From a virus: DNA of 64,000 bases. The notes under the pieces are model-generated. The model was not told where the DNA came from, searched no databases, and worked only from the letters and a program-made list of their open reading frames with translations. The stretch is taken from positions 1-64,000 of the IMG/VR virus record IMGVR_UViG_3300043015_002491, one strand, 5' to 3'. This document shows positions 13,453 through 60,361 of the stretch, in pieces (the first letter of the stretch is position 1; the number at the start of each line of letters is the position of its first letter). The position numbers and the translations under genes were made by a program.

Positions 13453-14439
13453 TTATAATTTATTTAATTGGTCCATCTTTTTAGCTTGGTTCTTTTTCTT
13501 TAAATTTTTAATTTTATCATAATGACCAGCTTTTTTGTTTTGTTTAAGAGCTTCAGCGGCTTCTGAACCAGCTGGTTGACCGCCATGTAACAATAAAGCG
13601 AAATTATCATCACTACCCCATGCTAATGAATCATCAACATCTATCTTAAGACCTAACTCTTTAGCTTTTTCTGGTGTGTAAACAACAACACTATATCTAA
13701 GGTTATTATCCATGATAGTTTTTGCGTTGTTCTTATCCATTGATGCTATAAGTTTAAAATTTGATGGTACAGAACTTCTATTAGCTAACCAAAACTTTAA
13801 TGAAGTTGTATACGCATAAAATAAAGTATTAGGGAAAGCTTTAGCTGTTTCCATCCAAGCTTTAAAATAATCAGAAGAAAAGAAATCACCAGCCTCATGT
13901 ACCCTAATCAATTTTTCACCTTCTAAACCATGATATTTAATTGATTTAATTAATAAATCTTTCATACCTTCCATACCATTTTCTTTTCTGGCACCATTTA
14001 ATAAATCTAAATTTTTATGAGCATTTTTATAGGCTGCTGGGTATTGGGATTGTGCTCTTGCTGCATAACATCTAAATTCAGCTTCTTTACCTTGTAATAA
14101 TGAAGAACCATCAGAAAATTTCTTACCACCTGGTTCGGCAGCAAAAGTTTTACATGTAGTTGCTAATGGACATGTAAAACCAGCTGGTAGTGAAAAATAT
14201 GGCCAATCTAATTTAGAATTACCACCTTCACTAAATGTTAACACACAATCTTTATTCGCATCAATAGGCTCACTTATTACTTCCGAATCATCAGAACCAT
14301 CTATATGACCAAATACGTCAAAATCTTCTTCTTCAAACATATATTGTCTAATGAAATGTGTCCCACAAGAACCACCCATGACTTCATTAATTAAGTGGTT
14401 TTTCATTAAACCTTCCCTAAGCAAATTCTTAATACTCAT
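13453..14439 (-). CDS. Gp88-like (radical-SAM-like) phage protein
   Basis: FSLPAGFTCPLATTC...CYA, RVHEAGDFF and FYAYT. Confidence 0.65.
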   Translation of the reverse strand: MSIKNLLREGLMKNHLINEVMGGSCGTHFIRQYMFEEEDFDVFGHIDGSDDSEVISEPIDANKDCVLTFSEGGNSKLDWPYFSLPAGFTCPLATTCKTFAAEPGGKKFSDGSSLLQGKEAEFRCYAARAQSQYPAAYKNAHKNLDLLNGARKENGMEGMKDLLIKSIKYHGLEGEKLIRVHEAGDFFSSDYFKAWMETAKAFPNTLFYAYTTSLKFWLANRSSVPSNFKLIASMDKNNAKTIMDNNLRYSVVVYTPEKAKELGLKIDVDDSLAWGSDDNFALLLHGGQPAGSEAAEALKQNKKAGHYDKIKNLKKKNQAKKMDQLNKL

Positions 14440-14526
14440 ATTTTTTTTCTTTTACTATAAATATAAAAAAATATATAAAAAGTTTGGGTATTAAAATATA
14501 AGACGTATTGAGAATATAAAAATAAG

Positions 14527-14598
14527 TTCCCCCAGGGAATTTCGAAATCCCGACCCCTCCGTTAAAAGCGGAGTGCTCTGCCTCTGAGCTATGAGGGA
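14527..14598 (-). tRNA. tRNA-Lys(TTT)
   Basis: cloverleaf; anticodon arm CTCCG-CTTTTAA-CGGAG. Confidence 0.92.
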
Positions 14599-14626
14599 AT
14601 AAAATGCCTCTCTCGGCATCCGTCAC

Positions 14627-14730
14627 AACATTTTGTATTCTGTTAACCTATCTGAACTCTAAGACTCATTCGTCTTTTACAGACATGGACATCCATTATC
14701 AAGTTCGGGTCCTAACGGTAAAATCTTGTT
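14627..14730 (-). ncRNA. candidate 6S-like RNA
   Basis: rod-like pairing GTTA/TAAC, ACC/GGT, GAACT/AGTTC around an open centre; between tRNA genes. Confidence 0.4.
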
Positions 14731-14743
14731 AAAAACCAGTATG

Positions 14744-14824
14744 AGCGGGTAGTCAGAATCGAACTGACATCGCTGCATTGGAAGTGCAGTATAATACGCT
14801 TTCGCTCCGTTATACGATACCCGC
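14744..14824 (-). tRNA. tRNA-Gly(TCC) with expanded D-loop
   Basis: loop CTTCCAA; D-loop contains extra AGCGAAAGCG. Confidence 0.85.
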
Positions 14825-14829
14825 AATTG

Positions 14830-14903
14830 AGCCCACCACCAGAATCGAACTGGTATCTACGGTTTACAAGACCGTTGTAATAAAGCCGTTATACTAGGTG
14901 GGC
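14830..14903 (-). tRNA. tRNA-Thr(TGT)
   Basis: ACGGT-CTTGTAA-ACCGT. Confidence 0.9.
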
Positions 14904-14910
14904 TTATTAG

Positions 14911-14995
14911 TGGGAGCCGCTGGAATCGAACCAGCACCTATACAGGGCTACAGTTTTACAGACTGCCTCAACCAACCAATAGTTGACTCACTCCC
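14911..14995 (-). tRNA. tRNA-Tyr(GTA), divergent copy
   Basis: loop CTGTAAA; long variable arm; imperfect base of acceptor stem. Confidence 0.75.
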
Positions 14996-15046
14996 AAATT
15001 GACTTTTTACCTTATCCAAACGTAAGCTTAAAGTCTAACAGCGTAG

Positions 15047-15129
15047 TGGGCCTGGTAGGATTCGAACCTACACGCTCCGAAGAGACCAGATTTACAGTCT
15101 GGCGAGCCAACCAATTGCTCAACAGACCC
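15047..15129 (-). tRNA. tRNA-Tyr(GTA)
   Basis: CCAGA-CTGTAAA-TCTGG; long variable arm. Confidence 0.92.
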
Positions 15130-15134
15130 AAATA

Positions 15135-15191
15135 CAGAATGCGCTTTTATATTTACCCAAAAAATAGTTTAAATTTTGCTGAATGCATTCT
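15135..15191 (-). ncRNA. CAGCAA-family small RNA with Pro(TGG) anticodon stem-loop
   Basis: AGAATGC-ATTCAGCAA...TATTT-TTTGGGT-AAATA...GCATTCTG. Confidence 0.7.
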
Positions 15192-15195
15192 TTAG

Positions 15196-15269
15196 CTACC
15201 CAGGGAGGCCTCGAACCTCCAAATTCCACATTCAAAGTGTGGTGACTTTGCCAATTTGTCTACTGGGCA
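15196..15269 (-). tRNA. tRNA-Gln(TTG)
   Basis: CCACA-CTTTGAA-TGTGG. Confidence 0.88.
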
Positions 15270-15323
15270 ATAATGATTTTTTGTATCCTTTACCAAGAAA
15301 GCTTAAAATCTAACAGCATTATG

Positions 15324-15419
15324 TCTGGGGAATGGGATTCGAACCCATGGCAGACACTACCCTTGTGCCCGCACCACGTCCCAAGCGTGGCCACTTCAAC
15401 CTTACTCGTGCATCCCCAG
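15324..15419 (-). tRNA. tRNA-Pro(TGG) with 8-bp variable arm
   Basis: CCACG-CTTGGGA-CGTGG; variable stem GCGGGCAC/GTGTCTGC. Confidence 0.8.
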
Positions 15420-15430
15420 TTTAATTATAG

Positions 15431-15505
15431 TCGGATAGACTGGACTCGAACCAGCACAATGTCCTCATCCCAAATGAGGCGAGATACCAATTTCTCTACT
15501 ACCCG
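15431..15505 (-). tRNA. tRNA-Pro(TGG)
   Basis: CTCA-TTTGGGA-TGAG. Confidence 0.9.
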
Positions 15506-15568
15506 ATTAATTCTCAATACGTCAATGAACATTCTGATTATTTAATCTCTATCAGAAAAAAAGAGCAT

Positions 15569-15602
15569 AAAAAAACCCGTCTCAGTTTTCCTGGACGGGT
15601 TT
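15569..15602 (-). terminator. attenuator terminator of tRNA operon 1
   Basis: AAACCCGTCCAG-GAAAA-CTGAGACGGG-T7; 5' arm complementary to GGCGGGTTT (15664-15672) in the leader ORF. Confidence 0.85.
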
Positions 15603-15626
15603 CTATATCTTTTGAACCTTATGTGA

Positions 15627-15734
15627 TTACAATGTAGTTAAATCACTTTCAGTTAAACATAGCAAACCCGCCACACTCGGCTTCCCGCCTTGCGTATACT
15701 GTTTCGGTTGATATGTCGTAACTGTTAAGTTCAT
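15627..15734 (-). CDS. leader peptide 1 (MNLTVTTYQPKQYTQGGKPSVAGLLCLTESDLTTL)
   Basis: 35 aa ORF between promoter and terminator; codons 6-19 all T/Y/Q/P/K/G. Confidence 0.85.
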   Translation of the reverse strand: MNLTVTTYQPKQYTQGGKPSVAGLLCLTESDLTTL

Positions 15735-15784
15735 TTTTTCTATTTTTTAAATTATTAAATTTGTTCGTTTAATTTATATATATG

Positions 15785-15816
15785 CAAATATATGGTAAAA
15801 GTTTCAATTTGTCAAG
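15785..15816 (-). promoter_or_regulatory. Bacteroidota-type sigma-A promoter, tRNA operon 1
   Basis: CTTGAC...GAAACTTT...TATATTTG (-33/-7 TAnnTTTG); near-identical at four loci. Confidence 0.8.
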
Positions 15817-15870
15817 TATTTTTCAAAATATTTTTAAACTTTTTTATATGTGCTTGATAATCAAGTATTT

Positions 15871-16269
15871 TTATAAATTATTTTTATCCCTAGCTTTTAT
15901 CTCATCCCTAATCTTAGCTGCATCTTCATATCTTTCTTCTTCAATAGCGATTGCAAGTCTATCTTCTAGAGATATTTTCTTTTTAGTTTTAGGTGTGAAG
16001 CCAGTATCAAGTGGTGAATGAATCATTTCAACCTTAACTATTGAACCATGTTCTGTTTCCCAAACACTTCTTTTGAATTTATAACCATTCTCTTCAAATT
16101 CAGTAACTTCATTAGGTTCACCTAATTCACTTTCATATGGATTAGTAGTGTCATCATTTAATTCACTAAAGTCATTTAACTTATTTATTAAATCTCTCAT
16201 ACCTTTTAAGGGGTCATTTGATTTCTTCCCAAAGAAGTCATCAAATAAATCATCAAAATCATTAAACAT
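15871..16269 (-). CDS. UVR (UvrB/C) domain protein
   Basis: C-terminal LAIAIEEERYEDAAKIRDEI; likely start MFNDFDD. Confidence 0.7.
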   Translation of the reverse strand: MFNDFDDLFDDFFGKKSNDPLKGMRDLINKLNDFSELNDDTTNPYESELGEPNEVTEFEENGYKFKRSVWETEHGSIVKVEMIHSPLDTGFTPKTKKKISLEDRLAIAIEEERYEDAAKIRDEIKARDKNNL

Positions 16270-16952
16270 AATATTATTTTTTATTTTTGTTATACGATTA
16301 ATTGTACAAAATAGATACCATTTATTTTTTTCTGCCAATATGTCTGTATCTATATCTAATAGATGTCAAAAGATACCTAAATGGATTAATTTTAAGTAAA
16401 TAGAAATATAGTCCAAATAATGAAACTGATAATAGGTAAAAAATAGAAGTGGTAATTACATAGGAATCTCCTGTCGCTTTTAAAACCATGTAAAAAAGGG
16501 CATCGTACCCTAATGGGTTCATAAACATCGCCATCATTAGAACGATTGTGGCTATTTTCTTTCTGTTTACTACCCTCATCATCCATATTGTTTAAACTTT
16601 GTGTTACCATATTATTAAAATAAGCTAGTTTGATTTGGAAGCATGTTCTTCCAATATTCAAGCTGCTCATCAAGCTTCTTAATCTTTTTGTTAATAGAAG
16701 CCCTTTCTCTTACTAATTGCTTTCTAGCTTCAGTAAGTTCTCTTAATTTATTGTTAATATCGTCTTGACTGATTGTATTATTCTCAGCTAAGATGTTTAA
16801 CTTTTCTTTAATCTTCTTTTTCATATTATATAAATATGAGCATCTTGGTTTAAATACAAAAAAGTTAAGGCCAGTGGCTACCATTCTAGATGGAGTTCGG
16901 AGATTACTATTTCACACTTAGGACCCTAAGACCTTAACCTTTATATTATTAG

Positions 16953-17022
16953 TAGTACTGCTGGGATTCGAACCCAGGTCTCCCCCTCAACGGGAGCGTC
17001 TTGACCGCTACACCACAGTACG
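16953..17022 (-). tRNA. atypical tRNA-like gene (loop GTTGAGG, nominal TGA)
   Basis: T arm CTGGG-TTCGAAT-CCCAG and acceptor GTACTG/CAGTAC; non-canonical anticodon loop. Confidence 0.55.
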
Positions 17023-17107
17023 ACTCTAAGGGAGCGACCCCTAGAGTAAGGAATGTTAGATACTAAGCTTTGGGAGCGACCCATCGCATCATACCCACTA
17101 CCCCTAG

Positions 17108-17232
17108 TCGGAAGGGCTAGATTCGAACTAGCATCAAGTGGTTCCCATAGCTTTTAAATTGCTGAACTTAACCTTTTAAAACAGATTAATCTTTTTGCAT
17201 TACCACCGCCTCACCAGTTGGGCTACCTTCCG
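17108..17232 (-). ncRNA. tRNA body with anticodon loop replaced by ~60-nt CAGCAA module
   Basis: acceptor CGGAAGG/CCTTCCG, D and T arms intact; GTGGT/ACCAC stem encloses TTAATCTG-TTTTAAA-AGGTTAAGTTCAGCAA. Confidence 0.7.
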
Positions 17233-17277
17233 TTTAAAAGGAAGTGTTGTTAAAACGTTTTACCGCACCATTAATAT

Positions 17278-17340
17278 CAGAGTGACTTTTACGTAAATCA
17301 AATTAAAAGTTTGAGCGTTAAAAATTGCTGAAATCACTCT
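17278..17340 (-). ncRNA. CAGCAA-family small RNA with Lys(TTT) anticodon stem-loop
   Basis: AGAGTGA-TTTCAGCAA...TCAAA-CTTTTAA-TTTGA...TCACTCTG. Confidence 0.7.
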
Positions 17341-17364
17341 TTATATTCCTAATATTTTTGATAT

Positions 17365-17482
17365 CAGAATGGGACTTAATACGTGCTCTACCAATTGAGC
17401 TACTTGCCCAGAAGGACAAGGCTGGACTCGAACCAACAACAACGAGCTTAACAGGCTAAAATTTAATTGCTGTAGCCATTCT
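17365..17482 (-). ncRNA. CAGCAA-family RNA with circularly permuted tRNA(Asn)-like module (YrlA-like)
   Basis: AGAATGG-CTACAGCAA, AGC-CTGTTAA-GCT, T arm, acceptor closed by loop (CTTGTCC-TTCT-GGGCAAG), D arm, CCATTCTG. Confidence 0.8.
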
Positions 17483-17746
17483 TTATATATCTTATCTAAT
17501 CTCTCAAAGAACTATGGTACAAACTTACAACTTATTTTTTAATTATGCAAGTTTTTTTTTTATTTTTTTTTAAGATTTTTATTACCCTTTGTATGGATAG
17601 GGTCAAAAGGGCAATGCCTACAACCACTCCCACAACATATAGACCTACGTTTTAAGTAGGATTCTGTATATATTATTTTGCCATTCTCTAAATAATAATC
17701 TTTACCTTCTTCAAATCTAAAATCACTCATATTAATTAATATTTAG

Positions 17747-17819
17747 TGGAGCCACCGATACTCGAAATCGGAACTGCTGGTTGCAAACCAACTATTATCA
17801 CCACTTTAACTATGGCCCC
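17747..17819 (-). tRNA. tRNA-Ala(TGC)
   Basis: loop TTTGCAA; GGGGCCA/TGGCTCC with G3:U70. Confidence 0.88.
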
Positions 17820-17953
17820 AGTTTTGTTAGATTTCGTACCGTTATCACACTTCAGTACAAGTCACTTTCAATTTATCTAACACACTTCCTATGCTGGCTA
17901 ACTGGGTTATTTAAGCGAAATACGCCCCCAGCGCCTTTATGTGACACCGTTAG

Positions 17954-18030
17954 CGGTCTAGGAGGGTTTCGAACCCTCGTTTTAGAGCAGAGACAGTGCA
18001 ATTCCCCCCACCATGGGGGCTTACTAGACC
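17954..18030 (-). tRNA. tRNA-Asp(GTC), divergent copy
   Basis: loop CTGTCTC; acceptor GGTCTAG/CTAGACC; unusual D arm. Confidence 0.65.
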
Positions 18031-18085
18031 GTGCACTAACTAAGGGGGATGATTAAGCCCCAATCAATTGTCGTAGTTAGTAAAG

Positions 18086-18158
18086 CGGACGTGACGGGAG
18101 TTGAACCCGCTCCGAACTGCGTGACAGGCAGACATCTTAACCGTTTGACCTCACGTCC
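18086..18158 (-). tRNA. tRNA-Asp(GTC)
   Basis: CTGC-CTGTCAC-GCAG. Confidence 0.85.
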
Positions 18159-18232
18159 GTAATTGATAGTCTTTCCTATCAGTCATACTCAAAACTCCCA
18201 CTGGTCGTAACTCCAGTTATAGAGAGCGTTTG

Positions 18233-18317
18233 TAATGCGGACGGGGTTCGAACCCGCAATACCCAAGAGGGTCCAGATTGAAAGTCTGGTCGCTTAAACC
18301 AATTTGCATACCGCATC
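18233..18317 (-). tRNA. tRNA-Glu(TTC) with long variable arm
   Basis: CCAGA-CTTTCAA-TCTGG; variable arm ACCC-TCTT-GGGT. Confidence 0.8.
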
Positions 18318-18322
18318 ATATG

Positions 18323-18396
18323 TAACCCAGACGGGGCTCGAACCCGCAATCTCCACAGTGAAAGTGTGACGACTTAACCAGTTTGTCCACTGGGTC
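18323..18396 (-). tRNA. tRNA-Glu(TTC)
   Basis: CACA-CTTTCAC-TGTG. Confidence 0.88.
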
Positions 18397-18431
18397 AAAT
18401 TAAACCAAAATGTCAAAGAACTATTCTTTTG

Positions 18432-18503
18432 TGCGACCCCTCAGATTCGAACTGAGACCTCCTGGGCTTCAACCAGGCGAGCTACCATTAACTCCAGAGC
18501 CAC
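18432..18503 (-). tRNA. tRNA-Phe(GAA)
   Basis: CCTGG-TTGAAGC-CCAGG. Confidence 0.85.
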
Positions 18504-18513
18504 ATATGGGCAT

Positions 18514-18544
18514 AAAAAAAGGCCCTCCGTTTCGGGAGAGCCTT
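18514..18544 (-). terminator. attenuator terminator of tRNA operon 2
   Basis: AAGGCTCTCCCG-AAA-CGGAGGGCC-T7; 5' arm complementary to GGGAGAGTC (18594-18602) in the leader ORF. Confidence 0.85.
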
Positions 18545-18574
18545 CTTATCTAAGCTTTTATGTTTTTATAACAT

Positions 18575-18667
18575 TTAACTTATGACAATACTTGACTCTC
18601 CCAGGCTAAAATCGGCCTCAGCAAACGCTTCAAAAGCAAAATCAAATATGTTGTTAAATGTTCTCAT
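18575..18667 (-). CDS. leader peptide 2 (MRTFNNIFDFAFEAFAEADFSLGESSIVIS)
   Basis: 30 aa ORF; codons 8-20 all F/D/A/E. Confidence 0.85.
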   Translation of the reverse strand: MRTFNNIFDFAFEAFAEADFSLGESSIVIS

Positions 18668-18716
18668 TATTTCTATTTTTTAAATATTAAATTTTTTTGT
18701 TTTAATTATATATATG

Positions 18717-18748
18717 CAAATATAGGTCTAAAGTTTCAAAAAAGCAAG
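18717..18748 (-). promoter_or_regulatory. sigma-A promoter, tRNA operon 2
   Basis: CTTGC...GAAACTTT...TATATTTG. Confidence 0.8.
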
Positions 18749-18793
18749 TATTTTTACAAATTATTTTTAAAATTTTTTTTAATTACTTCATTA

Positions 18794-19738
18794 TCAACGA
18801 TTTAATTTTTTTACTCCTCTACCAAATAATTCAGATTCTTTTTCTCTTCTAGATTTTAGACCTGGATGTTTCTCAAATGATTTTTCACTAGTAGTCTTTA
18901 TTTTTTCTTTAGCCTTTTCATATTCACCCCTTTTAACTAATTGTATAAAGTCAGAGTTTCTAAAACCACTTCTACCCATATTAAAAGCCATAGATACCAT
19001 AGCATCATACATATCTTGGTTGATTGTATATTTAATACCTTTCTTGTCCCAACGTGATAAAACATCATTAATAACCTTTTCAGCATAAGCTAAATCATTT
19101 TTAAATAACTCTTCAGCAGTTTCTCTAGAAATTACTTGACCTAATTTAAACTTAGACCTTCTAATTTTTTCAGCATGCCCCCAACCAATTGTGATTGCAC
19201 CATCACCAAGTTTATAAGCTTTAAGTACTGGTTCACCCTTATGTTTTATACTACCTTCTTCATACTTAAGGTGATTTATTAAATTTTGTGATGCTTTAGT
19301 AGGTTTAGCTACTCTATTGTCTAATTCTTTATTAACTTGATTTTCTTTTTCACTACTAACTCTTTTAACTGGCGTTGAAGTTTCTATTGATGTTAATATA
19401 TCTTGTTTTATATCTGGCGCATTAGCACTTAATAACGAACTAACCGTGTTTAATGATAATAAACCCATTAAACTAATACTCACATATTTTACCATTTTTT
19501 TTCTAAACCCAGATGGGATATTTTTGGTCTTATTTAATAAAACTTCTAAGAATCTTTCACCTTGTGTTGGTGAATGAATGGTTGACATGGTTTTTTCAAG
19601 TTGATTTTTTGTTAAATCCCATTCAAATGTTCTAGACTCTTCTTCGTTTTCACATATTAGTATTAAATCATTTAAACTATTTTCAAATAACCTAGTTTCT
19701 AATTCTTCTCTTAACAAATTTTCTATTAGATGTTTCAT
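18794..19738 (-). CDS. phage lysozyme (GH24) with N-terminal extension
   Basis: EEG..AYK.GDGAITIGWGH, DAMVSMAFNMG and GLKSRREKESELF; likely start MKHLIENLLRE. Confidence 0.88.
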   Translation of the reverse strand: MKHLIENLLREELETRLFENSLNDLILICENEEESRTFEWDLTKNQLEKTMSTIHSPTQGERFLEVLLNKTKNIPSGFRKKMVKYVSISLMGLLSLNTVSSLLSANAPDIKQDILTSIETSTPVKRVSSEKENQVNKELDNRVAKPTKASQNLINHLKYEEGSIKHKGEPVLKAYKLGDGAITIGWGHAEKIRRSKFKLGQVISRETAEELFKNDLAYAEKVINDVLSRWDKKGIKYTINQDMYDAMVSMAFNMGRSGFRNSDFIQLVKRGEYEKAKEKIKTTSEKSFEKHPGLKSRREKESELFGRGVKKLNR

Positions 19739-19792
19739 ATTATATAAATATAACCCAACCATTCAAAAATTGTATAGTACCTTAATTTTTAG

Positions 19793-19874
19793 TGACCCTG
19801 GTGAGACTCGAACTCACACGCCTTTCGGCAGAGGCTTCTTAGACCCCCCTGTATACCAATTCCAGCACAGAGCC
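19793..19874 (-). tRNA. tRNA-Leu(AAG)
   Basis: GGGGT-CTAAGAA-GCCTC; Leu-type D loop and variable arm. Confidence 0.8.
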
Positions 19875-19879
19875 ATAAA

Positions 19880-19963
19880 CAGGTTGAGTTTTACGGGATT
19901 GAACCGCTTCGTTTTGTTTTGCAGACAAAATTTTAACCATTTAAAGTTTGCTGTACTCAACCT
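19880..19963 (-). ncRNA. CAGCAA-family RNA with Cys(GCA) anticodon arm and T-arm remnant
   Basis: AGGTTGAG-TACAGCAA...TTTGT-CTGCAAA-ACAAA..GCGG-TTCAATC-CCGT..CTCAACCTG. Confidence 0.75.
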
Positions 19964-19967
19964 TTAG

Positions 19968-20056
19968 TACGGAGGGCGGGATTCGAACCCGCAGATGTAT
20001 CTTACGTGTGCCGTGGGGTCTAAGCCCACCGACTTTACCAGTTTGTCCACCTCCGC
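19968..20056 (-). tRNA. tRNA-Leu(TAG)
   Basis: GTGGG-CTTAGAC-CCCAC; long variable arm. Confidence 0.82.
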
Positions 20057-20061
20057 ATTTG

Positions 20062-20144
20062 TACTCCCGCCCAGACTCGAACTGGGATTTACTTCACGTC
20101 TCTTCCATGTAAAAGAAGGATGTTACCAATTACACCACAGGAGC
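20062..20144 (-). tRNA. tRNA-Val(TAC), variant with expanded variable region
   Basis: loop TTTACAT. Confidence 0.7.
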
Positions 20145-20150
20145 ATTTTG

Positions 20151-20240
20151 TAGCGGGAGCTGGATTCGAACCAGCGAAATCAGATTCACTCTGCCTCTGG
20201 GTTATGAGCCCAGCGAGCCGACCAACTGCTCTACCCCGCA
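20151..20240 (-). tRNA. tRNA-Met(CAT), initiator-like, long variable arm
   Basis: CTGGG-CTCATAA-CCCAG (three G-C pairs); 1:72 mismatch. Confidence 0.8.
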
Positions 20241-20247
20241 ATATTAG

Positions 20248-20438
20248 TTGCCACGGTAGGAATCGAACCTACTGCCTCTCCCCTATGAACGGGAGCGAGC
20301 TTTGAACAAATTTAACAAACTCCAAACTATTCATGTTTAACCAGAAGTCCCCTTAACATGTGTCGGTTATTCCATATTAAACAATCCAAGCCCTTTTAAA
20401 ATTAAACCTTGGCATGTTCTCCAATGCTCTACGTGACT
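20248..20438 (-). tRNA. tRNA-like gene (CAT) with >100-nt insertion in the D-loop
   Basis: acceptor GTCACG/CGTGGC; D stem GAGC/GCTC separated by a long insert; intact T arm. Confidence 0.6.
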
Positions 20439-20449
20439 AAGTTTAGCCG

Positions 20450-20535
20450 TAGCCAGAGTGGGACTCGAACCCACACGCCCCTTTCGGAGCAAGGGATTTT
20501 AAGTCCCTCGTGTCTACCAATTCCACCATCTGGCC
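20450..20535 (-). tRNA. tRNA-Leu(TAA)
   Basis: AGGGA-CTTAAAA-TCCCT. Confidence 0.92.
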
Positions 20536-20559
20536 ATATTTTCAAAGAACACTTTGTTG

Positions 20560-20635
20560 TTGGGATAGAGGGATTCGAACCCCCGACCTTCTCGGTGTAA
20601 ACGAGACGCTACTGAACCAACTGAGCTATATCCCA
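20560..20635 (-). tRNA. tRNA-Val(TAC)
   Basis: CTCG-TTTACAC-CGAG. Confidence 0.9.
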
Positions 20636-21398
20636 ATGTGCTAGGTTTTACCCTAGCTTTATAAATCTTTCATTTTTGATGGCTTTACTTATCCATCTTG
20701 CTAATTCAGAACCTCTGATTTTAGCATCAAATGTAGTTGTACCTAAATCTGAAGATAACTTTAGCGTTTGTATTTCTTCTCTTTCAAACGAATCAGTTTC
20801 AATTACTTCTTCAACTGTTGCTATTGGGAATTGATATAATTCGTCCATAATCACAACATTGTAATATAAATTACCAGCAATATAGTGACTAAATGTAGCC
20901 ATATTCTTAGACTTCATTAAGTCTTTTTTTATTTCTATTTCATTAAACATAACCATTCTCTTTTTTCCATTTTTCATGCATCATATTAATCGTATGGTAA
21001 GGACTTCCTTTACCTTCAATAATTTCTTCGAACCCATTTTCTTTAGTAATAAGAGATTCTCCATATTCAATAGTACCCTTAAATTTACTACCATAACTAC
21101 TAGATTGAAGTGTTTTTGTTGCTGGGTCTACATCACCCCAAGAACTTCTCCATCCTCTAGGTTTAAGATACTCAATAAAATATTGTTTACCTGTTTCTGG
21201 ATAAAATACCACTTCTCTTCCAGTTTCATCTCTGTTCACTAAGAACTCTTGCCTACTAATTGTTTTCATTTTTTCTTTTTTAAAAACCTTGTTATTATCA
21301 TTAACCAATTAACATTATTTTTTTGTCCCTTAGTTAATCTTTCTCTTGTTCCTTCTAAATTACCTCTTAAAATTTCTTTTACCATTTTATTTTTTTAG

Positions 21399-21469
21399 AG
21401 GCGGGAGAGGGAATCGAACCCCCGTAAAAGCTTTTGCAGAGCTCCACCTAACCACTCGGTCATCCCGCC
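21399..21469 (-). tRNA. tRNA-Cys(GCA)
   Basis: AGCT-CTGCAAA-AGCT; U73. Confidence 0.88.
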
Positions 21470-21485
21470 ATTAATTTTTAAACAT

Positions 21486-21519
21486 AAAAAAAGTCCGACT
21501 CGTTTTACTGAATCGGACT
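21486..21519 (-). terminator. attenuator terminator of tRNA operon 3
   Basis: AGTCCGATTC-AGTAAAAC-GAGTCGGAC-T7; 5' arm complementary to GGTCGGACT (21560-21568). Confidence 0.85.
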
Positions 21520-21545
21520 CTCTGTTTATCTTATTTTTATTCAAG

Positions 21546-21626
21546 TTAAGACACAACACAGTCCGACCAGTTTACCACTAGTAAACATAAGTTAAGGACT
21601 AATAATATGTTGTTTCTTGTAATCAT
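21546..21626 (-). CDS. leader peptide 3 (MITRNNILLVLNLCLLVVNWSDCVVS)
   Basis: 26 aa ORF; 10 of codons 8-18 are L/V/C. Confidence 0.82.
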   Translation of the reverse strand: MITRNNILLVLNLCLLVVNWSDCVVS

Positions 21627-21656
21627 TGAATTTTTCTTTGTTTTTAAATATATATG

Positions 21657-21688
21657 CAAAGTTACTATAAAAGTTTCAATTTGTCAAG
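21657..21688 (-). promoter_or_regulatory. sigma-A promoter, tRNA operon 3
   Basis: CTTGAC...GAAACTTT...TAACTTTG. Confidence 0.8.
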
Positions 21689-21723
21689 TATTTTTATAAA
21701 AAAGTTTTATTTTTTTTTGTAAT

Positions 21724-22431
21724 TTAAGAATACCTCATCTTAATTATTCTAGCTATTATGTTGAATAGCTGTTCTTTAGACCTACCTTCACGTCTTTTTA
21801 AAAAGTCATTAATTAAGTCAGAAATTCTCTTTTCTTTTTCTCTTCCCATCTGATATTTGTATGATATTACATCGAAAAGACTCATAAAATAATATCCATT
21901 AAGTTCGGTAGCCCTATCAAGTATTGTATCACTATCATCCACCTTAGTATCTGTATAATCACCGCCAGCTCTTTGTGGAGCCCATTCGTCAAACGCTTCA
22001 ATGTCCATTTGAGTTAAACCTAATTCATTTGGTCTGTAAATACCCTTCTCATAATTAGAGATAAATTTATCCATATCAACCTTACCGTTTAGGTTTGATT
22101 TTAAAATTTCCCAATTTTCTTTATTAGGTACTACCACATCTAAGTCACCTGGCTCTAATGGTATTTCTTTACCACCAAATTGTTCAGAAATCTTATTAAT
22201 AAATTCTGGTAAACCATCATACATATAAAGTCTTGCAGAACCAGATATAAAGTATTTTTTATCAGATGGTTTTATACCAAATGCTTTAAATAATACGTTA
22301 TCAGATTCTTTAATTAACCTCATTAATTTATTATTAGCCTCATCAAGTATCATCGTTTCTTGTAATGCTTTTTCCAAATTAGTCCAAGCATCTCTAATCA
22401 TCATTTCTTCATATAAGTTAGATAACTTCAT
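21724..22431 (-). CDS. putative nucleotidyltransferase-fold protein
   Basis: ISGSARL...GDLDVVV (GS...DxD). Confidence 0.5.
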   Translation of the reverse strand: MKLSNLYEEMMIRDAWTNLEKALQETMILDEANNKLMRLIKESDNVLFKAFGIKPSDKKYFISGSARLYMYDGLPEFINKISEQFGGKEIPLEPGDLDVVVPNKENWEILKSNLNGKVDMDKFISNYEKGIYRPNELGLTQMDIEAFDEWAPQRAGGDYTDTKVDDSDTILDRATELNGYYFMSLFDVISYKYQMGREKEKRISDLINDFLKRREGRSKEQLFNIIARIIKMRYS

Positions 22432-22820
22432 ATTCTTTAAGTTTATTTACAACTTCTGTATTATATTGTTTTTCAATTGTAAGTTTTTTCAATGAAAATA
22501 ACATAAGGAATGGGTTTGGTCCCTTGATAAATAAAAAATTATAAGCAGACCATTCACTAGTCATATAATACTTCTCATTTTCCATAACTTCAATTAATGG
22601 GTACCCATGTTTGTCAATATATTTCCAATCATAAGTGTGACATATTTTACTCACTTTCTTTAAAAATAATAACAACTCTATCACTCTCATAATTACCAAT
22701 AAGCTTAACATTGAAATAACTACCATAACTATAAATATTAACGTTTATTCAAATATAAGAATTATTTCCCAAAATACCAAATTAATCTTTACATTTAACA
22801 CTATAAACCTATATTATGGT

Positions 22821-23144
22821 ATGGGATTTATTTATTTAATTACTGATTGGTCTTCGAACCCGACACGTTATAAGGTGGGTATCACTAAGAATAATGTTGA
22901 AAGTAGATTAAAGCAGTTGCAGACAGGTTCAAGTGGTGAATTAGTGTTACTTAAAACATACGAATCAGAACACTATCGTAAAATAGAAGGTATTCTCCAT
23001 CGTGGTTATAAAACCTACTCTACCGATGGTGGTAAAGAATGGTTTGAATTACCAGATGAAACAGCCCTAAACTTTTTAAATGAATGTGAGCAGATTGATA
23101 ATAATATCAAAATGCTCAAGGATAGTGGTAACCCTTTTATTTAA
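22821..23144 (+). CDS. GIY-YIG / T5orf172-like nuclease
   Basis: GFIYLI...YKVGIT...RLKQLQTG...EWF. Confidence 0.85.
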   Translation: MGFIYLITDWSSNPTRYKVGITKNNVESRLKQLQTGSSGELVLLKTYESEHYRKIEGILHRGYKTYSTDGGKEWFELPDETALNFLNECEQIDNNIKMLKDSGNPFI

Positions 23145-24351
23145 TAACTACCCCTTTTTGTTTTTCATAAACATAAAACTTCTTTCTAATTTCAATAAGA
23201 AGTTTATTTACCAAACCACTTTCAACACTCTTAGGTAAATCAGATTCATCAAAGATTGTATCCATGTTCTGGATTTCTTTATCCGCCATTTCAATTAGTG
23301 ATTCTAAATCAACTTCTCCACGTCTGATTGAAAGTAATTCTTGAGCATCTGGTCTACGGATAATAATACCCTTACCTTCACCAATCTCCTTAGCCATTCT
23401 GATAAGTCTCATGCAATGCATCATATTCTTACCATCGATTTGTTGACCATGTTTTTGCGTATCAACATATCTTGCTTCGTTTCTATTTTCAACCCATTCT
23501 TGGTATTCCTTATAATCCTTACAGTGTTGTGAATAACCATCCTTATTATACGTAAAGATAGCAATTGATTTTTCCTCCTTGGGGATACTTGACAATCTCA
23601 ATTGATTGGATATTCCAGCATTGTTGGATTCCCCAACCTTAACAAGGCCCTTATACCCAAGACCGAAAGTAGTACCTTCTTCATTCCCAAGGAATCTTTT
23701 AACTCTATTCTTAGACTCTTCATCAAAGTCAGATGAGAAACAATTAGCAGCTACACCATCATAATAAAGAGCATACATATCTCTAGCATTGGGAATATTA
23801 ACCACACCGCAGAATTTTTGTGCATCAGAAGGGTAACCCTCTCTTTCAAACCAATCTTTAATTGGAGTTGACTTCTCACCTTCAATTACATAACAGAAGT
23901 CAAGTAATTCTTTTCTAGTTACTTTTTCCTTTTCCCAGTTTTGTTTCTTGTTAAGACCCTTCGCCTTCTTGATTTGTTGTCTAGCATATCCACCAAATGA
24001 GTTTTTACACCCCTTTGTGATAAACTTGTTCTTCTCGTTGATAATAATATCAAAAAGTGGATTCTTAGAGACAATACAATCTTCTGGTGAATTAAGCAAT
24101 TCAAGTACCGTTGGGTTGTTGCTTTCAAGTAGTTCAAGGAAACGCCTTACTTCCCAACCAACATAATCTTTATTAATATTTATTTGTTCAACATACCCAG
24201 TACCTAGAATAAAGTCTTCTGGAAGGATATATACAAACTTCTTATCAATATCACTTGTCGGTGTTTGAGTTCCATAGGCTTGTGACCCTACAATGGTTTC
24301 AAAAAGGATGAGACCATTCTCTACTAAAAATTCGTGTGTAATCTGTTTCAT
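23137..24351 (-). CDS. Pol-beta superfamily nucleotidyltransferase (RlaP/NrdC.11-like)
   Basis: GSQAYGTQTPTSDIDKK, NPTVLELL and KNMMHCMRL. Confidence 0.82.
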   Translation of the reverse strand: MKQITHEFLVENGLILFETIVGSQAYGTQTPTSDIDKKFVYILPEDFILGTGYVEQININKDYVGWEVRRFLELLESNNPTVLELLNSPEDCIVSKNPLFDIIINEKNKFITKGCKNSFGGYARQQIKKAKGLNKKQNWEKEKVTRKELLDFCYVIEGEKSTPIKDWFEREGYPSDAQKFCGVVNIPNARDMYALYYDGVAANCFSSDFDEESKNRVKRFLGNEEGTTFGLGYKGLVKVGESNNAGISNQLRLSSIPKEEKSIAIFTYNKDGYSQHCKDYKEYQEWVENRNEARYVDTQKHGQQIDGKNMMHCMRLIRMAKEIGEGKGIIIRRPDAQELLSIRRGEVDLESLIEMADKEIQNMDTIFDESDLPKSVESGLVNKLLIEIRKKFYVYEKQKGVVIK

Positions 24352-38203: not shown

Positions 38204-38388
38204 ATATTTAAAGAACTACGAAGAATACAACCTTTCCCCTTTCTTTTTTTATTTTTATTTCACCATTATAGCCTCCGTCTTCAGCTTTCTTTTTATACTT
38301 GTCGTAGATGGTATCAAAGTCTTTCTTAACTTCTTTTTCTTTTTCTACCCCAAGTTTTCTAACTCTCTCTTCCATAATAATCGGACAT

Positions 38389-40749: not shown

Positions 40750-41910
40750 TTATAATAAATTTTTAAAATTTTCAATTTCCATTTTCTCAATAGCCTTACC
40801 CATTTCTGGTCCAGGCTTAACTCCTAACTCTCGTTGTACTTGGTCACCAGTTACACTCAATTCAAATTTAACAAAACTAGTGATTAACTCACCATTTAAC
40901 CTTGCAAGCATACCAAACTTAAGTATTTGAGTATCTTCAATACCAGACTTACTTTGTAACTTCTTAAACTTGTAAACTTGTTCTGGGTTTACGAATTGTT
41001 GTAAAGCAATTAGAAATGTAATAACCTTAACTTCTGATGAAGAATAAGTAAGCTTATTTAACTCCTTTGCAATAACATTAGGGTCATTATCCTTAAGTGT
41101 ATTAGCAATCACAATGATTGGGTCCTTATCGTTAACCCTATCTGTTTTACTAATCTTAAGACCTGGGAAAATTGATTCCCATAATTTGTAGTCATCAATA
41201 AGACTTAAGAAATGTTTAACATTCTTAGCCGTTTTAATCCCCTTTAATAACTCATCTCTGATTCTTTCTGGCGAAACACCTTCAAGACTGTTATCCTTCT
41301 TTAAAGCAGCATCTACAGCTGGGTCAAGCCCACTTCCGAATCTACCAGCGAATCTAATAGCTCTAAGTATTCTAAGTCTATCTTCACCGAATCTATCTTC
41401 AGCAGCACCAACAGTTCTAACAACACCATTCTTCAAGTCATCAATACCACCAACAAGGTCAACAACCTCACCAGTATCTATATCGTAAAATAATGCGTTA
41501 ATAGTTAAATCTCTTCTCTTAACATCGGTTTCAATATCTGTAAATCTAACAGCATCTGGTCTCCTACCACCAGATAGGTCTTCTCTAAATGTAGCAATTT
41601 CGTATTCATCTGAATCTGTGAATACATTGATTACACCAAAAGCTTTACCAGTTGGTAGTGTTTTAAACCCAGCATCAGCCATCATATCTTCAACCTTGTC
41701 TGGTACAGCATCAGTTGCGAGGTCATAATCTTTTGGTGTCTTTCCTAGTAATGCATCTCTAACAGCACCACCAACAACAAATAACTTATGTCCGTTTTTA
41801 ACGAAAACATCTTTAATTTGTCTAATATCATCTGGGATAGGCATGTTCATTTGCACCCTTTCTTCTCTTATGATATCTTCTCTAAGTATTTGTTTGATTT
41901 TATCTTTCAT
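40750..41910 (-). CDS. cca: CCA tRNA nucleotidyltransferase
   Basis: VGGAVRD, DYDLAT, RRDLTINA and EDRLRILRAIRFA. Confidence 0.92.
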   Translation of the reverse strand: MKDKIKQILREDIIREERVQMNMPIPDDIRQIKDVFVKNGHKLFVVGGAVRDALLGKTPKDYDLATDAVPDKVEDMMADAGFKTLPTGKAFGVINVFTDSDEYEIATFREDLSGGRRPDAVRFTDIETDVKRRDLTINALFYDIDTGEVVDLVGGIDDLKNGVVRTVGAAEDRFGEDRLRILRAIRFAGRFGSGLDPAVDAALKKDNSLEGVSPERIRDELLKGIKTAKNVKHFLSLIDDYKLWESIFPGLKISKTDRVNDKDPIIVIANTLKDNDPNVIAKELNKLTYSSSEVKVITFLIALQQFVNPEQVYKFKKLQSKSGIEDTQILKFGMLARLNGELITSFVKFELSVTGDQVQRELGVKPGPEMGKAIEKMEIENFKNLL

Positions 41911-52561: not shown

Positions 52562-52701
52562 AATAACTTTTTTTTTTTATTTTTAATTATGGTACAAATA
52601 TACCACCTTTATTTTAAATTGTCAAGTAAAAACGAAAAAACCCTCACTAGGAGGGTTTCTTAATTTCCATCTGGCGAAATCAGAATGGAATGCTTGAGCA
52701 G

Positions 52702-53070
52702 TGGAGTTGCTCGGATTCGAACCGAGGTCTTACTTACTCATAAAGAGCTTTCTACATGCTTATCTGGTTTCTAATTCCAGCAAAGTTTAACAGTTCCCTT
52801 ATTTTAGTAGTTCGTTTTACTGATAACTAATCTTCTACCCTTATTTTAACACCTTTGGTTGGTCGTTCCTGTGGGTTTCCCCAGTGCATTACTCTGTTAG
52901 GCGAATGCTACCTCTCCTACACCTACTTCTACAGAAGCAGTGTCAAGGAAGTTTTCAGCGATGTCAAATTCGTTTCCATCTAAAAATTTGATAGGTAATT
53001 AAAGTGTTTCCAATCTAACACTGCATGCTTACTAATCACGACTATAAGCAATCAATAGCCAGTCAACCCC
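52702..53070 (-). ncRNA. ssrA: tmRNA
   Basis: 5' GGGGTTGACTGG and 3' CTCGGTTCGAATCCGAGCAACTCCA with G3:U70; tag ORF 52897-52977 ending AFA-stop. Confidence 0.9.
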
Positions 53071-58909: not shown

Positions 58910-60361
58910 TTAAACACGAATTGCTTCGTATCTTTCTGAACTAATAATATTCATCATCATTCCGTAAGGAGTGATATCATTACCAGCTAATAAGCTTGTT
59001 AATAACGCTGGGCTGAAACCAGACACCAACGCAGTACCTTGCTTATCGAATTGTACTGGGTTATTGTCATTTCTTGATTGAATGTTCCAGTATACAACCT
59101 TTGGCATTGTGTACCCAGCATCTGCATACATGTTTTCAATCATTCTTTGAGCAGTTGGATTCCAATCAGAATCACCTCTCCAACCATCGCCAGTAGCTTG
59201 GTTGAATTCCATATCCGAAAGGATAAGAATCATAGTTGGCATTTCTGACTCAGCAACATTACTAGCTTTTGCTTTTTGAAGCAATACCTTGAATGTCTTT
59301 TCTAAGTCTGTACTACCACCCCATTCTGCTCTAGATAGTTGGTTGAATCTGTCTCTTAAATCACCCTTTAAGTATTGTAACTTTGGGTTAGAGTGGAAAG
59401 TGAAGAATGCATCCTTGAATGGTCCTTCATTTCTCTCAGAGATATATAAACCTAATGAGATAGCTACATCCATACAGCTGATATTTGCGTTACCGCCAGC
59501 TGACACACCCATTGAGCCAGAAACGTCTACCACTGGTAAAACTCTTTCTTTATTACCTTCCATGTAGTTAGGTAAAGCTTTCCATTGTTCAACAGCACCA
59601 TCAGCTGAACCATATTTCAAGTTCTTAGTAATGTCGTATGGATATACAGCACCAGCATTAATCTTAGTTTCACCCTTTGAAAGTGAATCCAAATATGCTT
59701 GGAATCTGCTACCATCATTCTTAGAGAATGCCTTCATGTAATCAGACATTGCCTTAGATGGTACGTGTTCGTATGTAATCGCACCGAATTCTCTAGCACA
59801 CATTAATTGCTCAACAGTGTTAGATAACTCAGAAAGCATCTTTCTATACGCCTTTGGTGTTAACCCTAAGTGTTTTCTTAAGGTACTAGCCCATCTCTTC
59901 TTTTCCCTATTCTTAGTGTTACCTCTTGGCATCCACTTAGCCGCAAGTCCATTACCATCTTTTAACGCTTTTTCAATTTCGTTAAGAGCTTCTTTCTCTA
60001 ATTTAGTACCAACTAATATTAAATAGTCATCATACCTACCGTACTCAGCAATAAGTCCTATGTTCTTCTTAAGTGCTGAAGTTTTAGTATTAGCAAGATA
60101 AGTTAAAATATCTCTGAAAGTACCTCTTTCACCAGCTCCACCTCTAACGTCTCTAGCCCAGAATAAAATCTTCATAGCTGTTAACGAATCTTCAGCGAAA
60201 GCTTTAGAAAATGCATTAATCTTTCTTTGTTTATCTTGCCCTCTTAAAGCACCAATTTGGAAAAATAGGTCTACACAAGAATTAAGTGTAGTTGAATTTG
60301 TTGTCATACCATTTTCAGTAACAGTATCTTCAGTTCTTAAAGCGTCAATTAAATTTGCCAT
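58910..60361 (-). CDS. DUF2828 family protein with C-terminal vWA domain (TROVE/Ro60-like architecture)
   Basis: TENG, DLFF, FWARDVRGGAGER and AAKWMPR; MIDAS DVSGSM, ILSDMEF, YWN and SGFSP. Confidence 0.85.
   Translation of the reverse strand: MANLIDALRTEDTVTENGMTTNSTTLNSCVDLFFQIGALRGQDKQRKINAFSKAFAEDSLTAMKILFWARDVRGGAGERGTFRDILTYLANTKTSALKKNIGLIAEYGRYDDYLILVGTKLEKEALNEIEKALKDGNGLAAKWMPRGNTKNREKKRWASTLRKHLGLTPKAYRKMLSELSNTVEQLMCAREFGAITYEHVPSKAMSDYMKAFSKNDGSRFQAYLDSLSKGETKINAGAVYPYDITKNLKYGSADGAVEQWKALPNYMEGNKERVLPVVDVSGSMGVSAGGNANISCMDVAISLGLYISERNEGPFKDAFFTFHSNPKLQYLKGDLRDRFNQLSRAEWGGSTDLEKTFKVLLQKAKASNVAESEMPTMILILSDMEFNQATGDGWRGDSDWNPTAQRMIENMYADAGYTMPKVVYWNIQSRNDNNPVQFDKQGTALVSGFSPALLTSLLAGNDITPYGMMMNIISSERYEAIRV

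Follow-up and report, generated by a model that had tools for sequence, protein, structure and literature searches.

Leader-peptide attenuators are known from trp, his, leu and pheA and, in multivalent form, from the ilvGMEDA leader with its Leu, Val and Ile codons and the thr leader with its Thr and Ile codons. To our knowledge, all leader-peptide attenuators described so far regulate genes of amino-acid biosynthesis or aminoacylation. Here we describe a phage locus in which a device of this kind appears to head genes for transfer RNAs (tRNAs). The locus, called module B below, occupies positions 21687-21486 on the minus strand of the first 64,000 nucleotides (nt) of the IMG/VR virus record IMGVR_UViG_3300043015_002491; this whole stretch is called the window. 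Its sequence and that of its relatives lead us to regard module B, with considerable confidence, as a ribosome-mediated (leader-peptide) transcription attenuator with a phage tRNA operon under its control. The phage would then probably make Cys, Val and Leu tRNAs only when ribosomes decode the corresponding codons slowly. The genes downstream are tRNAs and two small open reading frames (ORFs), not genes of amino-acid biosynthesis or aminoacylation.

The phage modules share with the multivalent attenuators of enterobacteria a promoter-proximal short ORF that contains consecutive regulatory codons for several amino acids and is followed by an intrinsic terminator. In both, the antiterminator arises by pairing of the leader's 3' part with the 5' arm of the terminator, and the position of the ribosome would select the hairpin. 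However, the enterobacterial devices control biosynthetic enzymes, whereas the phage modules would control the tRNAs that read their own sensor codons. The phage sensors also cover up to eight amino acids each, all 20 amino acids are divided among four paralogous sensors, and the system is borne by a phage. None of the Trp, His, Leu and Thr leader models of Rfam matched the region 14000-24000 at E values up to 1.

Two further systems are comparable in part. The pheST attenuator with its pheM leader also regulates a component of the translation apparatus by the supply of the matching charged tRNA, but its target is a synthetase, it senses a single amino acid and it is cellular, while the targets of the phage module are tRNA genes themselves. 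T-box riboswitches also respond to the state of a particular tRNA by alternating between terminator and antiterminator in front of translation-related genes. A T-box, however, binds the uncharged tRNA directly and without a ribosome, in contrast to the phage sensor, which is an ORF with a conserved frame.

The published system closest in function is the trn operon of Anabaena sp. PCC 7120, a long tRNA array that is induced under translational stress and controlled at promoter direct repeats bound by the repressor TrcR (PMC8421152, PMC10272220). Both systems comprise a silent supplementary tRNA array that is, or in the phage would be, switched on when translation is impaired. According to the same reports the Anabaena control acts at the promoter, is not codon-specific and is not of phage origin, whereas the phage modules possess codon-matched leaders; in the main text of PMC8421152 the strings "attenuat", "leader peptide" and "terminator" have 0 occurrences each. 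No account of tRNA genes under leader-peptide attenuation was found in the full-text literature, the coverage of which leaves out most subscription journals and old scans, so that this is no proof of absence. An attenuator-like leader considered for the tRNA-Phe genes of E. coli was dropped from the comparison, as the upstream region of pheV in K-12 is without one and the literature on pheU and pheV contained nothing relevant.

Structure of module B

The elements of module B follow each other in the order expected of an attenuator (Table 1). An A-rich 5' untranslated region (UTR) separates the promoter-like element from the leader, of which codons 8-18 read TTA TTA GTC CTT AAC TTA TGT TTA CTA GTG GTA, exactly as the earlier note on this DNA had given them. 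The pairing of a leader segment with the terminator arm, which that note had also claimed, was recovered as the duplex of GGTCGGACT and AGTCCGATT at -16 to -18 kcal/mol and is accompanied by covariation in 29 modules (see below). The region 21660-21470 folds at -44.6 kcal/mol (z = -4.64), which was equalled by 0 of 200 shuffles. The gene for tRNA-Cys(gca) starts 16 nt beyond the T7 tract, and therefore there is no room for a promoter of its own. The spacing in the other modules is similarly narrow, with the first tRNA 11-25 nt past the terminator, or 59-64 nt when counted from the leader stop.

Table 1. Features of module B, its paralogues and other elements of the window. Match counts give the leader codons 2-19 served by arrays A/B/C/D.
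Feature	Position	Strand	Remarks
Promoter-like element	21657-21687	-	TTG (-33), 20 nt, TAACTTTG (-7); one of four paralogous copies of the extended motif
Leader ORF	21546-21626	-	26 codons + TAA; peptide MITRNNILLVLNLCLLVVNWSDCVVS; starts ~30 nt downstream of the promoter motif
Sensor codons 8-18	21573-21605	-	LLVLNLCLLVV; Leu, Val or Cys in 10/11
Segment 2, antiterminator 5' strand	21555-21571	-	leader codons 19-24; core GGTCGGACT at 21568-21560, codons 20-23
Segment 3, terminator 5' arm = antiterminator 3' strand	21511-21523	-	AGTCCGATT at 21519-21511
Segment 4, terminator 3' arm, with T7 tract	21486-21501	-	AGTCGGACT at 21500-21492; T7 at 21492-21486
Terminator hairpin	21488-21523	-	GC-rich; folds at -19.1 kcal/mol
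tRNA-Cys(gca)	21398-21469	-	first gene of array B
Two genes, 108 aa and 109 aa	20648-21269	-	between tRNA-Cys and tRNA-Val
tRNA-Val(tac), Leu(taa), CAT tRNA, Val(tac), Leu(tag), Leu(aag)	19792-20635	-	
Lysozyme-domain gene	18794-19762	-	3' of the last tRNA of array B
Module A	leader start 38539	-	peptide MRTMNIHRNSISNWRRNS...; array His Trp Thr Ser Ile Met Asn Arg Arg Ser; matches 17/2/3/1
Module B	leader start 21626	-	peptide MITRNNILLVLNLCLLVVNWSDCVVS; array Cys Val Leu CAT Val Leu Leu; matches 8/10/0/1
Module C	leader start 18667	-	peptide MRTFNNIFDFAFEAFAEADF...; array Phe Glu Glu Asp Ala; matches 5/0/13/1
Module D	leader start 15734	-	peptide MNLTVTTYQPKQYTQGGKP...; array Pro Pro Gln Tyr Tyr Thr Gly Lys; matches 5/2/0/15
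tRNA-Gly(tcc)	14750-14822	-	long D-arm insert; overlooked by default ARAGORN, found by Rfam
55-aa ORF	38208-38375	-	between attenuator A and tRNA-His
YrlA (Y RNA-like) match	17382-17444	-	between tRNAs; sub-threshold, 42 bits vs gathering score 69
RlaP-like gene	23137-24351		
CCA-adding enzyme gene	40750-41910		
Phage transfer-messenger RNA (tmRNA)	52701-53070	-	
DUF2828 gene	58910-60361		

Correspondence of leaders and tRNA arrays

Four copies of the extended motif of promoter and 5' UTR are present in the window, with none elsewhere in the record (0.00 expected), and each copy precedes one tRNA array. The correspondence of leaders and arrays was scored as the number of leader codons 2-19 (18 codons) whose amino acid has a tRNA in the given array. 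Each of the four leaders of the record scores highest on its own array (Table 1), and binomial P values against the amino-acid usage of the phage itself range from 1e-7 to 4e-4. When the 270 small ORFs of the window are scored against arrays A, C and D, the top rank in each case goes to the array's own leader. The match depends on the reading frame: over 15 modules, 189/270 codons match in frame, compared with 57/270 and 51/270 in the shifted frames. The relatively high count of leader B on array A is due to the prefix M-x-T-x-N-N-I, which leaders A, B and C have in common.

All tRNAs that the earlier note had listed for array B, namely Leu(TAA), Leu(AAG), Leu(TAG), Val(TAC) and Cys(GCA), are indeed encoded there, Val(tac) twice. 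The two Gly codons (GGC GGG) of leader D led us to search array D for a corresponding gene, and a tRNA-Gly(tcc) was recovered. With this gene counted, the four arrays together serve all 20 amino acids.

Covariation and geometry of the antiterminator

The complementarity seen in module B is common to all modules, in each of which leader codons ~19-25 hold a segment complementary to the module's own terminator 5' arm; the four terminators of the window differ in sequence. Covariation was studied in 29 distinct module sequences from 22 IMG/VR contigs, comprising 14 modules of type A, nine of type B and three each of types C and D. The terminator stems vary widely across these modules, and segment 2 varies in step. 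Duplexes between the 3' part of a leader and its own terminator arm have a mean energy of -15.3 kcal/mol, in contrast to -9.6 kcal/mol (standard deviation 3.25) with foreign arms, and the sensor part of a leader pairs with its own arm at -4.2 kcal/mol. The observed own-pair mean was reached by 0 of 100,000 random and 0 of 100,000 within-type re-assignments; the related modules are non-independent samples, and the permutation within types addresses their kinship partly. The own arm ranks first for 8/29 leaders and among the top three for 18/29. A MAFFT alignment of the 14 A modules left the terminators out of register, and alignment-free duplex matrices were used instead of pair counting.

The geometry was studied by folding transcripts that end in the terminator loop, with the 3' arm not yet made, under a ribosome mask that blocks the RNA to 11 nt past the A site; the results depend on this assumed footprint. 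With the ribosome at the sensor codons, the antiterminator is predicted in 29/29 modules, and with the ribosome at the stop codon it is lost in 29/29. The antiterminator remains possible up to a median A-site codon of 18 (range 15-21), and up to codon 17 in module B. In the 15 modules tabulated, the matched codon run ends at the last permissive codon. The sequences themselves show the anatomy, the frame-specific match of codons to arrays, the covarying antiterminator and this geometry.

Related modules in other phages

Relatives were found by means of the CCA-adding enzyme and two short DNA patterns derived from the leaders. The A pattern gave 15 matching stretches, one of them cut by a contig end, and the B pattern gave 80, of which 7 are real modules. 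The same modules are present on 21 other IMG/VR contigs, among them a complete genome of 362.5 kb with terminal repeats (G003), the leaders of which match their own arrays in 17, 11, 11 and 14 of 18 codons. All 32 modules examined retain a leader frame from ATG to stop, 24-38 codons long, and gaps within the ORF are all of 3 nt in 11/14 rows of the A-type alignment.

Leader B has orthologues in eight further distinct B-type modules. A sensor Cys codon lies inside the Leu/Val run in 8/9 B-type modules, and tRNA-Cys is the first gene of the array in all eight. In the ninth (G001), Ser replaces Cys and tRNA-Cys is missing from the array. In the D-type leader of the same phage, Tyr and Lys are gone and His, Phe, Glu, Asp and Ser have been added, which again parallels its array.

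Contig L033 (7664-9376) carries two A-type modules ~1.5 kb apart, which have different terminators and matching variants of segment 2; each is followed by the 55-aa ORF and tRNA-His.

A much more distant comparison is provided by LR745206, a published uncultured phage of 634,780 bp, the CCA-adding enzyme of which is 39% identical to that of the window. Its tRNAs are sorted differently, with His, Phe, Trp, Lys, Arg and Ser in array 1, Asn, Arg, Leu, Val, Ile, Thr and Met in array 2, and Pro, Asp and Gln in array 3. A short ORF, a hairpin and a T tract precede three of the four arrays inspected, and the fourth is without a leader. Scored against the four arrays, the three leaders give 12/6/0/0, 0/18/0/4 and 1/8/8/3. 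As the leaders agree with this different sorting, they track whichever tRNAs lie downstream. At 364000-369400 of this genome an array with Met, Glu, Tyr, Ile, Gly and other tRNAs (L130) has a conserved upstream hairpin, no leader ORF and no terminator, and continues straight into tRNA-Met; it constitutes an unattenuated exception.

INPHARED yielded no cultured relative, since it contains no module-like DNA (three matches are due to chance, in a Campylobacter phage gene) and no CCA-adding enzyme above 39% identity. A scan of IMG/VR with the promoter motif had 0 matches, so the motif is specific to this genome. The upstream 235-aa gene and a GP88-like gene retrieved no relatives when used as search handles. 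Relatives of the lysozyme gene comprise 16 loci without tRNA arrays, except for a single tRNA-Ala without a leader, and are too distant to inform on the modules.

Proposed mechanism and alternative explanations

The earlier note had interpreted module B as an attenuator. This interpretation is supported by the frame-specific match, the dominance of the own array, the covariation of segment 2 and terminator, the geometry found in 29/29 modules and the joint variation of the Cys codon and tRNA-Cys. Translation of the leader, the coupling of transcription to translation, the conditional nature of termination and its physiological trigger are inferred. Host RNA polymerase would initiate at the promoter-like element (21687-21657), and a ribosome would translate the 26-codon leader as the polymerase transcribes the terminator region. 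If the Leu, Val and Cys codons are read fast, the ribosome would advance to codons 19-27 and mask segment 2 (GGTCGGACT), upon which segments 3 and 4 would pair and transcription would stop at the T7 tract, 16 nt short of tRNA-Cys. If a scarce aminoacyl-tRNA slows the ribosome at any of codons 8 to ~17, segment 2 would remain free and pair with segment 3. The terminator would thereby be prevented, and the polymerase would read through into the genes for tRNA-Cys, the two small proteins and the remaining tRNAs of the array (Val, Leu and CAT). The net effect would be a negative feedback, i.e., a self-limiting supply of tRNAs on demand. The other three arrays would be headed by the same device with different sensor codons.

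However, we also have to consider several observations that weigh against this interpretation. Leader B matches its array in 10/18 codons (z ~ +2.3), which is not unusual for the window, where chance hydrophobic ORFs among the 270 small ones reach a top score of 11 for the set C, V, L, M. Its Asn codons 12 and 19 are unserved by array B. The composition of leader B alone is therefore weak evidence, and the hydrophobic peptide could pass for a signal or membrane peptide; the significance of module B rests on its paralogues, its relatives and the pairing. One relative, G001, fits poorly, with 4/18 and 9/18 matches. The full-length minimum-energy fold keeps the terminator of module B at 12/12 ribosome positions sampled, as do the masked full-length folds of module D, whereas the antiterminator helix wins in module A with the ribosome at A-site codon 5 and in module C with it at codons 5-9. 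Antitermination at module B would therefore have to be kinetic, as it likewise is in classical attenuators. Without a ribosome the antiterminator is still predicted in 27/29 modules, rather than the 1:2 hairpin of the enterobacterial attenuators, and there is no superattenuation, unlike in trp. The coupling of transcription and translation in the presumed Bacteroidota host is an assumption.

The match is also less strict for codons than for amino acids. The earlier note had stated that the Leu codons of the sensor match the Leu isoacceptors of the array. This is exact in module B, where TTA, CTT and CTA are the Watson-Crick cognates of the three Leu anticodons, and in G003, where five Leu codons match five Leu anticodons, including the sole CTC and the sole Leu(gag) as partners; none of the nine B-type modules has CTG or Leu(cag). 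It does not extend to the family, as 6/9 B-type modules use CTT without a Leu(aag), and exact Watson-Crick codons are not enriched overall (46/108 vs 56.6 expected), which rules out exact matching as a general rule. The rare G-ending codons CCG, TCG, ACG, GCG and GGG are over-used in the four sensors of this record (11/41 vs 4.7 expected, P ~0.005), and it may be that the sensors sample both the A- and the G-ending codons read by each U34 tRNA.

It could be argued that module B is a constitutive terminator or insulator next to a gene for a small hydrophobic peptide, that its resemblance to the array is coincidental, and that the tRNAs are transcribed by leaky read-through or from an unrecognised promoter. 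This would agree with the unexceptional composition of leader B among the small ORFs and with the hydrophobicity of the B-type leaders, the run of which ends with an AEA-like motif in one relative. Nonetheless, the paralogous leaders A, C and D lack this hydrophobicity and all match their own arrays; the match depends on the reading frame, and segment 2 covaries with each terminator. The narrow gap between T tract and tRNA-Cys and the sensor Cys codon and tRNA-Cys being both present or both absent point in the same direction, and we regard a constitutive terminator as very improbable. Hardly any more credible is a direct, T-box-like sensing, in which the anticodons of uncharged tRNAs would pair with codon-like triplets and stabilise the antiterminator while the ORF stays untranslated. 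The triplets do fit the downstream anticodons, at least by wobble, and no Shine-Dalgarno sequence is visible upstream of the leader ATG, but the lack of such a sequence is normal in Bacteroidota. The Rfam scan of 14000-24000 at E values up to 1 detected no T-box and no other riboswitch or leader family, and we know of no precedent for 10-18 consecutive specifier triplets. Moreover, an untranslated ORF leaves unexplained the frame of 24-38 codons kept in 32/32 modules, the restriction to 3-nt gaps in 11/14 A-type rows, and the end of the matched run where the leading edge of a ribosome would meet segment 2.

A different question is what the attenuator would report. It reads the availability of aminoacyl-tRNA, which is also lowered by amino-acid starvation, as established for trp, his and ilv, and the same device might respond to such starvation or to the overall capacity for translation instead of the supply of the tRNAs encoded downstream. 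We consider this unlikely, as the leaders follow their arrays module by module, even in the differently partitioned LR745206, which a general gauge would not need, and as extra tRNA would not relieve amino-acid starvation. The constitutive terminator, the T-box-like switch and the general gauge all fit the family-wide data worse than the attenuator.

Implications for tRNA use by phages

The purpose and timing of tRNA use by phages are an open question, for which codon-usage matching, compensation for host shut-off and escape from tRNA-cleaving defences have been proposed. If module B acts as an attenuator, the phage measures decoding capacity and supplies tRNAs as needed. Classical attenuation would thus be extended from amino-acid to tRNA supply, and the modules would represent a natural, modular and codon-specific sensor of translation speed. 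More tentatively, and at a level of support at which we would rather bet against it, the modules may be evolvable sensors of tRNA supply, codon by codon, by which the phage detects tRNA-targeting immunity and replaces exactly the missing tRNAs. Each array in the near-complete tRNA set of the phage would then be silent until ribosomes stumble over the codons read by its tRNAs, e.g., upon cleavage by an anticodon nuclease or the loss of tRNAs in host shut-off. The different partition in LR745206 suggests that sensors would be re-written as tRNAs move between arrays.

Promoters, operon genes and genome context

The motif TTG-N18-21-TAnnTTTG, which we take to be the promoter consensus of Bacteroidota, has 31 sites on the minus strand of the window and 0 on the plus strand, against a shuffle mean of 2.9. 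A scan with the sigma-70 consensus gave 40 sites vs 33.8 expected, i.e., no excess over chance. We infer a Bacteroidota host, and the consensus would explain the lack of Shine-Dalgarno sequences. The earlier note had singled out an independent promoter for 20635-19793 as evidence against its interpretation. No phage-type motif was found between 21657 and 18747, and by that criterion nothing drives these tRNAs independently. As no such motif precedes the lysozyme-domain gene either, it may also be part of the attenuated operon.

The two ORFs that the earlier note had placed inside the operon, at 20648-21308, exist as genes for 108 and 109 aa. Both are kept at the same position in seven related-phage loci (five distinct sequences) with 48-82% identity. 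The 55-aa ORF that follows attenuator A has tblastn matches in 18 loci from 16 contigs with 48-58% identity. Neither the two operon ORFs nor the 55-aa ORF belong to a Pfam family, and the sole PHROG match (0.0036) is to a family without an assigned function. AlphaFold models from this set have a predicted local distance difference test (pLDDT) score of 71 for the 109-aa protein and of 59; a Foldseek comparison of the 109-aa model with the PDB at E <= 0.001 gave no match.

The window represents the first 64 kb of a 122.5-kb record of a giant phage, which is estimated to be 35% complete. It has a G+C content of ~31%, and 27/29 of its ORFs of at least 200 aa lie on the minus strand. The RNA runs X18 and X23 contain 0.15 and 0.14 of the sampled words of the stretch, which is no evidence of expression or habitat. 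Further genes of the record encode a CCA-adding enzyme, an RlaP-like RNA-repair nucleotidyltransferase, NAMPT and a lysozyme. Together, the YrlA-like match, the tmRNA and the genes for DUF2828, the RlaP-like protein and the CCA-adding enzyme form a large RNA-maintenance toolkit. ARAGORN counts 31 tRNA genes and a tmRNA in the window. Many of these tRNAs are unusually long for their type, with 84-97 nt (e.g., Pro 97, Met 91, Thr 88), and may contain inserts or introns.

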